The notes beneath the pieces are model-generated. The model searched no databases. It was not told the DNA's origin and saw nothing but the letters and a program-made list of their open reading frames with translations. Source: Paramecium tetraurelia (lineage: Eukaryota). From it: 64,000 nucleotides of DNA. Shown one piece after another: positions 42,952 to 51,829 of the stretch (position 1 is the first letter of the stretch; every line of letters starts with the position of its first letter). The position numbers and the translations under genes were made by a program. The stretch covers positions 62,001 to 126,000 of the forward strand of contig CT868208.1 of the NCBI GenBank assembly GCA_000165425.1, read 5' to 3'.

Positions 42952-44504
42952 ATGATTTAAGCCGATTCCGATTCAAGTAGAAGAGTAGCATACTTTTATA
43001 ATAGATTGATAGGGAAATTTCATTATGGTAAGGAACATCCTATGAAACCGAAACGTATCGCGATGGCCCATAGCCTAATAGTAAATTTTGGGTAGTTGAA
43101 ACCTTATATAAAGATAGACTATACAGATCATTGGATGTCTATTTGATTAGAGAAGCACAATTAGAAGAATTACAAAAATTCCATGATCCTGAATATGTCA
43201 CTTATTTAAGTTAGTATATGAGTGAAAATAAGGTAAACTTTGTAAAGGAATATTGTTCAACAAATAACGATGGGGTAATACCTGAGAATTTGTTGGAAGA
43301 GTACAGATTAATAACTAAATGGAGTCAAAATAAGAATACTAAAAATCTGAATTCTGAGTACAAAGTAGGAGACTCAGCCGATAATCCTACATTTTCAGGA
43401 CTTTTCTCTTATTGTTAATTTAGTGCAGGGGCAAGTATTGATTGTGCCCATACAATACTAACCGGGTAAGCAGATATAGCAATCAATTGGTCAGGCGGAT
43501 TGCATCATGCTAAGAAGAAGGAGGCAGCTGGATTTTGTTACATAAATGACATAGTATTGTGCATTTTAGAGTTATTAAGAATATATGTTCGAGTATTGTA
43601 TGTAGATATTGATTGTCATCATGGCGATGGAGTTGAAGAAGCCTTTTATTTGACCAATAGAGTTATGACTTTGTCATTTCATTAATATGGAGATGATTTC
43701 TTTCCAGGAACAGGATAATTGAATTCAGTAGGATTAGGAGTAGGCAGATATTATGCAGTCAATGTGCCATTAAAGCCAGGAATATCTGACGAACCTTACT
43801 TAGATTTATTTAAGAAAGTGACCAGCAGAGTGATGGAAACATTTCGTCCTGATTGTGTTGTTATGTAATGTGGTGCAGATTCATTATCACTGGATCGATT
43901 AGGGGCTTTGAATTTATCCATCAAGTAAATTGAATATTACAATTAAAAAGAGGACATGGATAATGCATTTCCTATATGAAATAATTTGGAATTCCATTGA
44001 TTCTTTTGGGAGGAGGAGGTTATACAATTTAGAATGTGTCTAGATGTTGGGCTTACGAGACTGGCATATGTTTAGGACAAACTATTGATTAGGTATGTAA
44101 ATATATCACTACTGAATGTAGTCTATCCCATCTAATGATGTATATTACAAAAATTATGGCGGAGATTATCATCTACACTTTCCAATTCAAAAGAATGTTG
44201 AAAACAAAAATAAAGCTGAAGATTTAAACAAAATAGTATCTTAGGTGTATGATCATTTGCATAACTTAGAAAATGCACCAGGTATTCATTTTCATGATGT
44301 CCCATATTCATTCTATCCAAATATGGAATTGGAGAAAGATGAAGATAATAAAATGAGTATTTAAAATATCTATTTATTGTAGAAATGGATGTGAAATAGG
44401 AGATATCTTTATTTGAATTGGAAAAGAATCTAGGAATATCAGATGAAGCCCATGAAATATCAGTAAATTCTGGTTCCAGAAAACTACATTCAAAAGAATC
44501 CTGA
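42952..44504 (+). CDS. Class I histone deacetylase (RPD3/HDAC1-3 family)
   Basis: [59 protein letters not shown]. Confidence 0.97.
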
Positions 44505-44607: not shown

Positions 44608-46025
44608 TCATGATTGCTTTTATATTGAAGCTGATTGTTGTGGAATATTTTTCTGAACCTATATCAATTATCTCAAACTTTAAAGATTTTGTTTGGTAAA
44701 TTGAAGATTTTATTTGTTATTCGAAGTTGATTATTCTTAATTAACAATAGGATATTCATCATTTTCAATCTGTTATAATTAGGTTTAAATTTTACTCCTT
44801 AAGATTTATATTAAATTAATTTACTTATAAGTACTATTCGTATTAGTGTTAAGAGTGTTTTCATTTGTCAAAAACGGATGATTTTATAGTTCAATTGAGG
44901 TTATTCTCTTTTTTGGATCAGGTTCTAGAGTGCGTTATAGACAGTCTTAGCAATTTCGAGATAATTTAGTATTAAAATCTGTTGGGATCATTAATCGAGC
45001 TTCTGAGATTTGAGTGATAATTTCCCTTTTGGTGTTACCATTAAATGGTAGAGTTCCAAATAGCATTTTATATAGTATTACACCCATGGACCATACATCC
45101 ACTTATGGAGAGACACCTTTATCCATTCCTAAGCGAATACATCATATGTATACCTTTAAATAATTCCGGAGCCATATATCGAAGACTACCTGCATCTGCA
45201 TTTTCAGGGTTGCCATTTGAAGATAAACCAGAAATACCAAAGCAAATACATTTAATTACTCCTGAATCTTTACTTGTTAACAATAATTTTTCTAATTTTA
45301 GATCGCCATGAATTATTTTCTTTTAGTGGCAATATGAAATAGCACTAGCAAGCTATTTAAGATAATGTCTAGCTTCACTTTCCTCAAATTTACCTTTTGT
45401 TTATAAGTATTATTGCAAATCACCTCCTTCCAAGTACTCCATAATATACACCATTTAAAAATTTTGCAAATAGAATGCATCATAAATCTTTACTATGCTA
45501 TCATGCTTTAAAGCATCTCCAAAAATCACGTCATCATCCTACATTTAATTAGTTATTACTTAAGCATTAGTCGATGATTATTTCATAATTTTGATTGCTA
45601 CTTTTTCTCCTGTTTTTTTGTGTCTACCTAGAAGAACCTTACTAAATCCTCTATCTCCAATATCTTAAAGTAGTTCATATTCTGCCTATTAAAATATTTC
45701 ATCAAATTCTTCACCTAATATTGATATTGACTTTAAATCATACCCTCAGAGGCAAACAAGACAGTTCCATTTTTAACATAATCGAGATCATCTTCTGTTA
45801 TCTCCACTCCTTCTTGATTAAATAAACGTAGACGATTAAAATATGCGTCCCATTTTTATTGCAACGATTAACTAATTTCACTAAATTTTGTATTTTTTCT
45901 TATGGTAATAGTGCAACATAAATTTGAATCACCATTTCGTTATATTTTTATCTAATTCCATACTGTATATCTATTACATCTTTGTTGTTTGATGCAGACA
46001 CATAATCCTCAAAAATTGGATCCAT
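44608..46025 (-). CDS. CAMK/AMPK-like kinase with N-terminal DCX/KHA-like (ubiquitin-fold) region; DFG replaced by CFG
   Basis: RLFNQEGVEITEDDLDYVKNGTVLFASEG; VAIK; IHGDLKLEN; KCICFGIS; GSLRYMAPE; 3' end approximate. Confidence 0.85.
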
Positions 46026-47021: not shown

Positions 47022-47384
47022 TCACTCAAGCTTATAATTCTTGATCGATTCTTGCTTTTCCATCTTAGGTCAGTTGTACAGTGATCACCAATTTGACTCT
47101 TTTTCTTCCATCAATATCGGCTGTGAAAGAATTAATTTTAGTTATTGTAATTAAACCTAGAGAATAGGATTCAAAATACCTTATCTCTACAGATTTTCAG
47201 CTACTCTAACACTGATCTTTGTGGCTTCACCTAATGCATGTAATTCAACACTATTGAATTTCTTCAAAAATATTTTTGTGATGAAAATGAATTCCTTAGC
47301 ACTTTTCTTTGATGACACGTGCAATTCGTTATTGGTTGGATCAAGTCTTTATTTTTGAGGTCTTTATGTCTATTAGGTGCTCAT
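47022..47384 (-). CDS. Alba family DNA/RNA-binding protein
   Basis: NELHVSSKKS...FLKKFNSVELHALGEATKISVRVAENL...KLVITVQL. Confidence 0.9.
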
Positions 47385-47703
47385 TATATATTTAAAAAAA
47401 TAAATATCTAATTTTTAATATAATAGCAATATAATTTATTAAAACCCTCTATATTTTCATTATGGATTCTCCTTCTCAACCTGAAGGTCCTCTTGGCACC
47501 TAATATTGATAGATCACAATTCTCAAACGCATAAAAATCTCGAAAGTTGAAATGTTAATTAATTGCGCTATTTGTCTTTGTTGAATCCTTCACAGGAGAT
47601 TCTGAACTCTGCAACAGTCATCAAGTTAATATGATTTTCTAAGTTCTATGCAATATGATTATTATATTAAAATACGTGTGAGTTATAATAAAAATAAAAA
47701 ATA

Positions 47704-47776
47704 TGGAGCAACCGAGCTTCGATCTCAGCGCCTCATGCATGCTAAGCATACGCTCTACCAAATGAGCTATTACCCC
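47704..47776 (-). tRNA. tRNA-Ala(AGC)
   Basis: GGGGTAA/TTGCTCC acceptor stem with G3:U70; D-arm GCTC..GAGC; anticodon loop TTAGCAT; T-loop ATCGAAG; oligo-T tract downstream. Confidence 0.95.
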
Positions 47777-48024
47777 ACGTTCGAATATTTGGCTATGATT
47801 ATCTAGATGAAATGTTTGATTAGTTAATGTGAATTGGTGTTATGGAATTTGAATATTTATAAATAGCATTTGTCGTTAAAAACACTAACCGAATTGTGAA
47901 ATATTCTTTTTTAAATTGCGTGATTTAAACAAGAATATATATAATTCAAATTTAAATTTGACGGAAAAATGATTGATCTTAAATAATATTTGTTTTATTT
48001 TATTTTCCCTCACTTTCAAAAAAG

Positions 48025-48415
48025 ATGGCCAGAACCAAAGAAGGCAAAGAGATGTCAAAGAAAAGCATCGCTAAAACCTCAGGGAAAAAAATGAAATCCA
48101 AAAGAAAGGAAAGAAAACCACATAGGTTCCGACCTGGAACAGTTGCTTTGAAGGAAATCAGGAAATTCCAAGAGAGCTCTCGTTTATTAATAAGGAAGAT
48201 TCCTTTTTAGAGATTAATAAGAGAGATAGCAGGAGTGAATGAAAAAGAAATGAGATTCCAAAGTAGCGCCATATTTGCCTTATAAGAGGCAACGGAAGCA
48301 TTTATAGTTAACCTCTTAGAAGACAGCGTTCTTTGTGCACATCACGCCAAAAGAATGACTGTAACTGCAAAGAGATATCAATTTAGCAAGAAGAATTAGA
48401 GGAGATGAATTTTGA
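48025..48415 (+). CDS. Divergent histone H3 variant with apparent +1 frameshift near 48365
   Basis: MARTK...[19 protein letters not shown]...PFQRLIREIA...[17 protein letters not shown]...HAKRMTV; conserved [14 protein letters not shown] lies in the +1 frame (48371-48415). Confidence 0.93.
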
Positions 48416-48449
48416 TTTTATTTCATAATATATTATGATACCTTCAAAC

Positions 48450-49011
48450 TCATGATTGCGATAAGATCAAGGATACAATTAAACCATATAATGCCAAAGC
48501 CTCTGCGAAAATGAGAATCAAAATCAATCCAACAAACAATCTCTCCTACTGTGCATTCCCTCGAACACCCACATCTCCCACAATGCCAATTGCAAAACCA
48601 GCTGCTATGCAACTGCAACCACAACATAATCCCGATGCCATATGTGCAAATCCAGACTTATATGAGTATTCCAAAGGGTTTTTCACTATTTTGGGTTACA
48701 AATCTCACACATACCTTTTTATGACAGCAAAACTGCGACGATCATACCATAAATACCCAAAATACCTGCCATAACTACTGGGATCAATGATTTCATAATT
48801 ATCTCAGGTTTCCAAATACCAATGGCTGCTATACCAGCACCTGCCTTGAATGTTCCATAACCTGCACCCAAATCTAAAAGAAGTAATTCCTTAAATTCAT
48901 ACTTGCCAACACTAAAGCCATTGTGACTCCCATAAAACCAAAAAATGAAGAAGCACTAATTGGAGTAGTGTCTGCTGCTGCACTAACCATGGTGTCAAGA
49001 ACGAAAAGCAT
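48450..49011 (-). CDS. V-type H+-ATPase 16-kDa proteolipid subunit c
   Basis: [53 protein letters not shown]; two tiny introns. Confidence 0.97.
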
Positions 49012-49411: not shown

Positions 49412-51668
49412 TCAATAAAAGATGCCTTGAACATAATATTGGTATTTATCGTACCATTTTGCTCTCCAATTATCTATGGACGAGTTAATGATGCTAAAAT
49501 ATAATTGAGTGATTCTACTTTTAACAAATAACATTTAATTTTTGATTATCGTCCTCATACAAAAAGAATCTCTCCTCCAATTGAGTAATGGATTTATCTC
49601 CTCTTTTAAAACATGGCATTGAGTTCTTATGTCCACAATACCTATTGATAGTTAATGTGTTACATCATTTTTACAAGTAACAAAATTCTATCACTGTGTT
49701 TCCTAAGGGCCATGAAACCTTTATAAAATAGTTCCCTGAACTTCTTAAATAGATCACTTTAAACACCACCAAGGATTTCAATTTATTCGCTCAACAATTT
49801 AAAAGGAACTTTATTCTCAATTTCAATTCCCTTCCCTGGAGCATTTCCTAAAAAGAATCCAAAATCTATATGAGCTAGATGGCCATCTCTTTTTAATAAT
49901 ATGTTCCCGTTATGTCTATCTTTAAGTTGAAGTATGTAACAGGCGAGAGAATATCCAACTAAGCTTTGCATAAAATTGGTTCGATGACGATCACTAAAAT
50001 TATGACTAATAATTGAACAGATATACTGATTACTCGAAGAATTAGCTTAATGTTTATTGTCTGTTCCATAATTATCGTTTTAATGAATCAATCGTAATAG
50101 CATCCTTCACCATTTCAATTAATCCATAATTGGGTCCCAACGAAATTACTTCGTAAATTGATAATCTCATAGGTAGATCCTCAATGATAAAGATTTAATC
50201 TATAGTAGATAAGAGTTGCATAGCAAACTGCTCCTATTTCAAATTGTCCCCTGATTTCACGATAAGATGAACCAATCTCCAGGATTTAAGATTACCAAAC
50301 AGAGATTAATCCTTGATCCTTTGTTCTTGGTCCTTAGCTGACTCCCCAAATAAGCTCTGGCCATCTTGTCCAAGTGGCATGCTTTTGCGTTGTCCATCCT
50401 ATACAAATGAACTCCCAACACTTACAAAATCTTCATTATTCTCTTTAGAAAATGATTGATAAACACTCTTCTCTTCAGCTTGTTCATCATTTCCAGGAGA
50501 ATAAAATTACACCGTTGGTGTTTCATCAATAATATCCTCGTCAATAATCTATAGTGGTTATTGTACCGAGATCTTATGAACATTTGGATCTATGAGATTA
50601 TCTAAGAATACTACATTTGTTTTAATCTAGGAAGATGGATCCATTGATTGACATCTTCTATTGCAGCATAGATTTATGCAGAGTGATCGCTTCAGATTGC
50701 TTATAGTCATTCCTCTGATCCTTCTCCACATCGGGCCTGTAGATCTCCAGACATATATAGAAGGGTGATCTTTCCTTGGTGGAGAATACTTTGGTTTCTG
50801 GTGCCACTATATTCAAGACTGCATAGTTTCTGATTTGCTCCTTAACAAAAGGAATGTATACAGAAGATGGTAGATTCTGATTAATTCTCTGGAGATCTGC
50901 CTTCAAAGATATTATTTAGGGGTAAGCTAGATGGAGTCTAATTATTAATATCGTTTACCTCTCAGATATTCTGATTATGTCATTCCAGAAATTGATAGTA
51001 GAAGAGAATCCACAGACTTTTTCCCTTGTTTAATTATCTACATTCACTGATAAGTACTATCCTAAATTAATTTCAGAGGCATTGACCTTGGGTGTTGTTT
51101 AATCATAGCCAGCAGTCCCATAAATTTAAATTCCCTCTTTGTTAGGATTATGGGAAATAAACTCTTTTCCATTGATCAGATATTCATCCCCATATTGTTC
51201 TTTCATTATTTTTGTGTATTCAATCAGAAAATCTTAAACTCCTTTCAGATTTATGACCTTTTTATTCACTATCTGCGATAAGGATTTTAATTGAAAGTAA
51301 GTCAAATGCGCAAAGTAAAAGTTATTTTAGCATGCGTCGAATAAAAACTATATTAACTCTTCGTGATTTCTTCTGAATACTAAGTAATTGATAAATTATG
51401 GTATATAATATTCTAAGTCCTCTCTTTTCTAACTCAACCAATTTGGATTCAATCTGACCTTTTCCAAATTCTTTTTGATAACTTCAATATCCTGGCCACC
51501 TTTATATAATTACAAAAGCACTGCCTTAGTACTTAATATATCACCCTAACTAAAATAACATTTTACTTCATCATCTATAATATGATTAGTAAAAAATGAA
51601 TCCGAATTTCTCCTTCTATTCGCAAAACAACAATAACTTGCATCTTCATGTATTTTAGAATTATTCAT
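49412..51668 (-). CDS. Phosphatidylinositol 4-kinase type III beta-like
   Basis: FSTKERSP, LIVKSGDNLKQEQFA, LQLKDRHNGNIL, HIDFGF, ENKVPFKL; ends GIFY*. Confidence 0.95.
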
Positions 51669-51829
51669 CTTGATTTTCTTAATTTATTTATTATTATTTA
51701 CATAAAACTCGTTATTATATAACTTAAACAATTATAGTTCCATATTTATTCAACCTTAAAACTAAATTTAATAGATTTATAATATGAAGAACAAATCATT
51801 CATAAATCCGAGTAATCATATTTGATTTG

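Follow-up and report, generated by a model that had tools for sequence, protein, structure and literature searches.

A Paramecium histone H3v2 gene with a shortened tail and a probable deletion around K9

Paramecium tetraurelia has 16 histone H3 genes encoding ten proteins (Lhuillier-Akakpo, Guerin, Frapporti and Duharcourt, NAR 2016, PMC4770206). Two of these genes, PtH3v2a and PtH3v2b (PTETG3100003001 and PTETG3000004001), were recorded there as carrying 'deletions and/or substitutions around K9, K27, K79'. The legend of Supplementary Fig. S1 of the same paper gives H3v2 as expressed, with induction late in the development of the new macronucleus (new MAC) by microarray, which answers in the affirmative a check on expression raised by an earlier reading of the locus. 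Full-text literature searches turned up no subsequent work on the function of H3v2, and Paramecium H3 variants go unmentioned in PMC13159322 and PMC11789628.

Here we describe the H3v2 gene in a stretch of 64,000 nucleotides of the P. tetraurelia genome (hereafter the window), which has a G+C content of 23–33%. A prediction made from the letters of the window (hereafter the original prediction) had taken this gene for an H3 variant with a natural K9M-like tail that may be either refractory to methylation or an inhibitor of a methyltransferase. The gene has already been published, along with its unusual tail and its developmental expression, and in that sense the finding is largely ordinary. 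The best explanation overall, which we consider fairly probable, is an intact H3v2 that serves in development as a replacement-type H3 and lacks the K9 site.

Identity and family of the gene

The H3v2 coding sequence lies on the forward strand at 48025..48415, is intron-less and closes with the stop codon TGA at 48413–48415; under the ciliate code (table 6) it encodes 129 amino acids, disregarding one base at 48365. Two in-frame codons, both on the forward strand, place the ciliate nuclear code in use: TAG at 48208..48210, which reads as Gln at the position equivalent to Q68, as had been predicted, and TAA at 48283, a second Gln codon. The product matches the Pfam Histone family (PF00125) over residues 6–116 with 110.3 bits against a cut-off of 26.4 (E 9e-32), and its nearest solved structures among PDB chains are H3.3C, H3.1 and H3.2 (HMMER, E about 6e-42). 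It starts with the H3-type N terminus ARTK and aligns without gaps after KPHR in a MAFFT alignment with 60 invariant columns over nine sequences. Once the base at 48365 is disregarded, helix alpha-3 and a DIxLARRIRG-type C terminus are intact; as written, both are disrupted.

The protein (P0001) is UniRef entry Q7Z106_PARTE, 'Histone H3 n=3 Tax=Paramecium', of 129 aa; NCBI lists it for P. primaurelia, among others. Clustered with it at 90% are a second P. tetraurelia protein, GSPATT00011562001 (P0121; scaffold_31), which differs by T17N, and a pair of proteins from P. sonneborni (P0122 and P0123). The latter species also has a more distant paralogue (P0004) of 125 aa, with 69% identity. The PtH3v2a/b rows in Supplementary Fig. 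S2 of PMC4770206 have the same tail, fold and C terminus as the window gene. The published pair specifies the same protein, from which the window departs through the extra C at 48365. Whole-genome duplication has left the P. aurelia complex with two copies of the H3v2 gene, of which this locus is one, and we regard this identity and the integrity of the gene as close to certain. The a and b labels look inconsistent: the row with T17, as in the window, is labelled H3v2a, the N17 form P0121 is on scaffold_31, and the H3v2a id begins PTETG31.

None of the collections searched, in which other Paramecium species may be unrepresented, contained a tail of the H3v2 type from beyond the aurelia complex. 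A word search with the tail alone recovered it only in P0001 and P0004, all other matches arising through MARTK or one further stretch. When P0001 was searched against representative sequences, the best 150 of 16613 matches (E up to 0.001) were multi-copy fusions and canonical-type H3s, with no separate H3v2-like representative; this search collapses relatives of >50% identity into one and is uninformative on the conservation of orthologues.

The original prediction that the gene encodes an H3 variant and not a centromeric H3 (CenH3) held: the tail is shortened and rewritten, the K9 context is absent and Arg replaces K36. Loop 1 is of normal length and F84 is retained, as had been predicted; the fold aligns gap-free to canonical H3 in the MAFFT alignment and shows none of the loop-1 insertion typical of CenH3, extra residues being confined to PtCenH3a/b in the published alignment (PMC4770206). 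The tail is alignable from its ARTK start, and overall identity to canonical-type H3s is 60–62%; CenH3 folds are 44% identical to the other P. tetraurelia H3 variants (PMC4770206).

The extra base at 48365 and the gene's surroundings

The open reading frame as written in the window encodes 127 aa with a C terminus unlike that of H3, and the H3-type end resumes in the next frame, from 48374. The break comes down to an extra C within the Met114 codon at 48365 on the forward strand (ATG written ACTG), which shifts the frame before helix alpha-3. Both flanks match P0001 exactly, 48025–48363 giving residues 1–113 (113/113) and 48368–48415 giving residues 115–129 plus the stop (15/15). Helix alpha-3 forms the four-helix bundle between H3 and H3'. 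A real frameshift at 48365 would replace the whole of this helix and leave a product unable to work as an H3.

Taken at face value, the window copy could be a true pseudogene, an ohnologue killed by the insertion in alpha-3, with only its sister copy working. The frameshift in the sequence as written fits this reading, as does the exact 127-aa frameshifted product, which had no match in any of the protein collections searched. Sequencing runs tell against it. A search of public runs with 47800–48600 found the stretch or part of it in 20 of 24 listed runs (18 studies); no listed run contained more than 0.96 of the sampled words, a shortfall of about the size expected from a single wrong base in 801. 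Four runs were aligned, and all three that cover the site, each from a different study, leave out the C at full contig depth (170.2/170.2 in X1, 145.6/145.6 in X4 and 2268.8/2268.8 in X15), with the caveat that these are Logan contigs, from which rare variants are dropped, so that a minority of macronuclear copies with the C could escape; the fourth run, X19, has no cover there. Furthermore, the remaining reading frame is protein-identical to intact orthologues of other species and carries no further lesions, and the authors of PMC4770206 count H3v2a and H3v2b both as genes and both as induced. A pseudogene is, on this evidence, extremely unlikely.

Because the C is missing from the predominant sequence of three independent data sets, we read it as a reference error; most likely it is that or a private variant, and the H3v2 gene is intact. 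The error at 48365 is a new fact, gene models built on this sequence would be wrong, and it may explain the absence of any recorded protein from the exact reading frame. A 26-nt GTA...TAG stretch at 48361–48386 was considered as an intron bypassing the frameshift and rejected: its removal would take out the conserved DINLA of alpha-3, and the reads restore the frame by one missing base.

Two of the aligned runs bear on expression. Contig cover in X15, a run guessed to be RNA, starts in the 47989–48015 bin, with nothing further upstream, and is very deep over the coding sequence, although contigs can neither rank expression nor show transcript ends. In X19, an RNA-Seq run from a second organism, a 291-nt contig lies on 48025–48311 with five differences, including 48077 C>A, which gives T17N, the P0121 form; there is no contig cover at about 48312–48542, a gap to which we attach no weight. 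These contigs weakly indicate that the H3v2 coding sequence is present in RNA-type libraries.

The neighbourhood suggests no functional cluster. A tRNA-Ala gene (anticodon AGC; 47703–47777, reverse strand), the only tRNA found in the window, lies 247 bp upstream of H3v2 in divergent orientation, and just beyond it is a reverse-strand open reading frame with an Alba domain, a chromatin- and RNA-binding family (47085–47456; PF01918, 41.8 bits). On the other side, a gene for V-ATPase proteolipid subunit c converges on H3v2 from the reverse strand (48450–48641, with upstream exons to about 49000; Pfam ATP-synt_C, 62.8 bits); the two stop codons are about 35 bp apart, and one X15 contig (record 11) spans both 3' ends. 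Beyond these, the reverse strand carries a large gene at 49555–51749, whose 3' exon matches a PI3/PI4-kinase catalytic domain with 94.3 bits, and, on the tRNA side, a gene for a protein kinase (44608–45745). An open reading frame fragment at 43934–44356 that looked HDAC-like by eye had no Pfam match at E up to 0.001.

The rewritten tail and its methionines

The N-terminal tail of H3v2 (A1–K30; 48028..48117, forward strand) retains ARTK4, lacks the TARKST segment with K9 and has R29 opposite K36. Much of its description in the original prediction was accurate: residues A1 to S10 were read exactly, the Met9 codon was placed at 48052–48054 and all coordinates were correct. The predicted shortening by seven residues agrees with 34 residues up to PHR, compared with 41 for the most frequent canonical tail in the set of H3s used, and the Arg opposite K36 is seen in the MAFFT alignment. 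Two methionines stand in the tail, both encoded on the forward strand. Met9 (48052..48054) sits in the context K7-E8-M9-S10, aligns with canonical A15 or P16 and is Ile in P0004; Met22 (48091..48093) sits in K20-K21-M22-K23-S24 and is aligned opposite S28, with K21 opposite K27.

Several alignments place the missing residues before M9. MAFFT puts a gap directly after MARTKE and so deletes canonical residues 6–11 (TARKST), HMMER runs the variant tail ungapped against canonical residues from about 8–9 on, and the published MUSCLE alignment (PMC4770206) places the tail gap in the same way. We also made global alignments of the tail (BLOSUM62, gaps −11/−1) against 19 distinct canonical tails from a set of 215 proteins, chosen for the canonical first 11 residues at their start and two ARK[ST] motifs. 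M9 fell opposite P16 (11 alignments), A15 (6), M15 (1) and K9 (1), so that A15 or P16 accounts for 17 of 19, and canonical K27 was opposite variant K21 (11) or K20 (8) in all 19. Three other gap settings gave a similar picture, more scattered under the laxest (−5/−1), where M9 stood opposite A15 in seven, P16 in four, T6 in four, L16 in two, M15 in one and a gap in one. Forcing M9 onto K9, by keeping the first 11 residues ungapped, makes residues 26–27 Arg-Lys (K-R-K-E); the free alignment outscored this register in 18 of 19 cases (mean 52.5 versus 47.2), a modest margin of about 5 BLOSUM62 units for Lys-rich tails that align ambiguously.

Most likely, the tail lost a segment around K9, comprising canonical residues about 6–12; this alignment-based placement of the deletion is new. 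M9 is most likely not homologous to K9: the two are equated only by counting from the N terminus, and the 'natural K9M-like' tail of the original prediction is not supported, its likeness to K9M being most likely a coincidence. By our own arithmetic, with two Met in a 31-residue tail and four famous lysine positions, the chance of such a coincidence is roughly 1 in 4.

The fate of K27 differs from that of K9. The claim that neither lysine has its ARKS context is right in that ARKS and ARKT are absent and the K9 context is gone, the segment being deleted in the alignments, but a K27-like site is not clearly absent, since even the register used for that claim contains KRKE. A K27-equivalent Lys probably remains, as K21 (GKKM) or K27 (KRKE), with a basic residue at −1 in either register; this probable retention of a K27-like lysine is also new. 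H3v2 may thus still be a substrate of the methyltransferase Ezl1 through GKK21M or KR26K27E, which would weaken the description 'methylation-poor'; K23 is a secondary methylation site of Ezl1 (PMC6586856). The suggestion of a methylation-refractory variant is accordingly reasonable, and already published, as far as the tail being poor in the usual methylation sites goes, but it is qualified by the K27-equivalent Lys that probably remains, with K21 and K27 as the candidates.

Within the family, variation among the four 129-aa forms is confined to mature positions 17, 18, 24, 25, 26, 47 and 67, residues 1–16 being identical. In P0004, A8-I9 replaces E8-M9 with no other change over residues 1–16, so that position 9 is hydrophobic in five of five sequences. 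M22-K23-S24 occurs in all five distinct sequences, preceded by Lys in four and by Gln in P0004; these are close relatives, and counts among them carry little weight. Conservation of M9-S10, named by the original prediction as a check, is partial: M9 is present in four of the five distinct orthologue and paralogue sequences, but P0004 has Ile, with Ala at −1.

These comparisons bear on the proposal of an endogenous methyltransferase inhibitor, in which M9-S10 would be a natural mimic of a K9M oncohistone, the Met entering the lysine channel of the Ezl1 SET domain and dominantly inhibiting H3K9 and H3K27 methylation. The proposal draws on the Met at ordinal position 9, followed by Ser10, and on the presence of M9 in four of five family sequences; Ile, found in the fifth, is also effective at the Met position of EZHIP and at H3K27 (PMC6513997). 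Ezl1 writes both K9me3 and K27me3 (PMC6586856), and H3v2 is expressed during macronuclear development (PMC4770206).

Against this stand, first, the alignments, in which M9 is opposite A15 or P16 by MAFFT, by HMMER and in 17 of 19 pairwise comparisons and opposite K9 in one of 19, though by the modest score margin given above. Second, Glu occupies the −1 position of M9. The same reversal of charge in EZHIP, R405E, abolishes inhibition, leaving a 'negligible effect on PRC2 activity'; in a structural model, R405 forms salt bridges with EZH2 D652/Q648 (PMC6513997). At the neighbouring position of EZHIP, M406I is active and M406E, M406K and M406R are inactive (PMC6513997). In a homology model of Ezl1, acidic residues are proposed to anchor the Arg at −1 of both K9 and K27 (PMC6586856); neither H3v2 methionine has such an Arg, E8 preceding M9 and Lys, or Gln in P0004, preceding M22. 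Third, the A-R dipeptide before the target residue is absent, and P0004 differs at exactly these two residues, A8-I9, while keeping the other 14 of residues 1–16, which looks like relaxed constraint. Finally, H3v2 is induced late, as the H3.3-like genes are (PMC4770206). With M9 away from K9, Glu at −1 and M9 itself variable, inhibition of Ezl1 by enzyme poisoning seems to us very unlikely, and this part of the original prediction is not supported.

A proposed role and its described counterparts

Outside the tail, the position equivalent to K56 (48172–48174) is acidic in all five H3v2-type sequences, with Asp in P0004 and Glu in the other four. At K79 all five have Glu, the Lys having moved to position 80, and K4 (in ARTK), K64 and K115 are retained in the MAFFT alignment. 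The passages of PMC4770206 on these variants name K9, K27 and K79, without K56. All five family sequences have Ile (in SSAIF) at the equivalent of position 89, the signature by which the authors of PMC4770206 call H3P4 H3.3-like.

We propose that the developing macronucleus would receive H3v2 as a replacement-type H3, a reading suggested by the Ile at 89 and by late induction together with the H3.3-like H3P4 genes. H3v2 nucleosomes would lack the K9 site for Ezl1, a PRC2-like methyltransferase, and would carry an acidic residue at the K56 contact where DNA enters and exits, probably with looser DNA ends. As they were deposited, H3K9me3-type marks would be thinned out or reset, and chromatin would become looser, while DNA elimination and endoreplication proceed or once they are over. 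The effect would be passive, through a missing substrate and not through poisoning of the enzyme. We put forward this passive replacement mechanism tentatively, as possible but somewhat short of probable. If H3v2 does limit or reset Ezl1-dependent marks, it would place a control at the level of the histone on small-RNA-guided DNA elimination.

H3v2 might instead act mainly through nucleosome mechanics, forming unstable, open nucleosomes that ease excision, repair or endoreplication, with the loss of K9 incidental. K56 sits at the DNA entry/exit site, and its neutralisation raises DNA breathing. The change of K56 to Glu in four sequences and to Asp in the fifth, the Glu at K79 in all five, the short and very basic tail and the coincidence of late induction with amplification (PMC4770206) are all in line with such a role. 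However, tail residues 1–16 are identical in the four 129-aa forms, which suggests that the tail is read by something. We consider a mainly mechanical function rather unlikely; it is compatible with a replacement-type developmental H3 and does not exclude it.

A bolder version would make H3v2 a purpose-built 'unmarkable' histone that enters the developing macronucleus late, has no K9 site and carries K36R, K56E and K79E; it would replace Ezl1-marked nucleosomes on retained DNA and so end or confine the H3K9me3/K27me3 programme by which DNA elimination is guided. In its boldest form, M22, which lies in the invariant M-K-S and follows Lys in four of five sequences, or M9/I9, could also block the Ezl1 active site in cis, and H3v2 would then be an evolved physiological counterpart of the oncohistones. 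We regard this version as quite improbable.

Three groups of described systems resemble H3v2 in different respects. With the H3 K-to-M oncohistones and EZHIP (PMC6513997), H3v2 shares a Met or Ile in a basic, H3-tail-like sequence and a host EZH2-like enzyme that methylates both K9 and K27; in EZHIP, however, the Arg at −1 is essential, whereas H3v2 has Glu at −1 and a Met that is not homologous to the target lysine. Spirotrich ciliates have H3 variants with divergent tails that are expressed in macronuclear development and linked to the sorting of retained and eliminated DNA, Stylonychia H3.7 being found on macronucleus-destined sequences and H3.4 with H3K27me3 (PMC7599177, PMC6896033). Spirotrichs belong to a different ciliate class from Paramecium, and the likeness to H3v2 is one of description.

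The third group comprises Arabidopsis H3.15, with K27 replaced by His, and the sperm variant H3.10, inducible or stage-specific histones whose altered tails escape PRC2 and whose deposition removes H3K27me3 (PMC10426802). Their logic is the one proposed for H3v2 with respect to K9. These plant variants are of independent origin, and the tail of H3.15 is canonical except for the point substitution at K27, whereas in H3v2 the whole K9 segment is missing and a K27-like lysine may remain. If the proposed role is correct, H3v2 would be a protist parallel to the plant variants H3.15 and H3.10.
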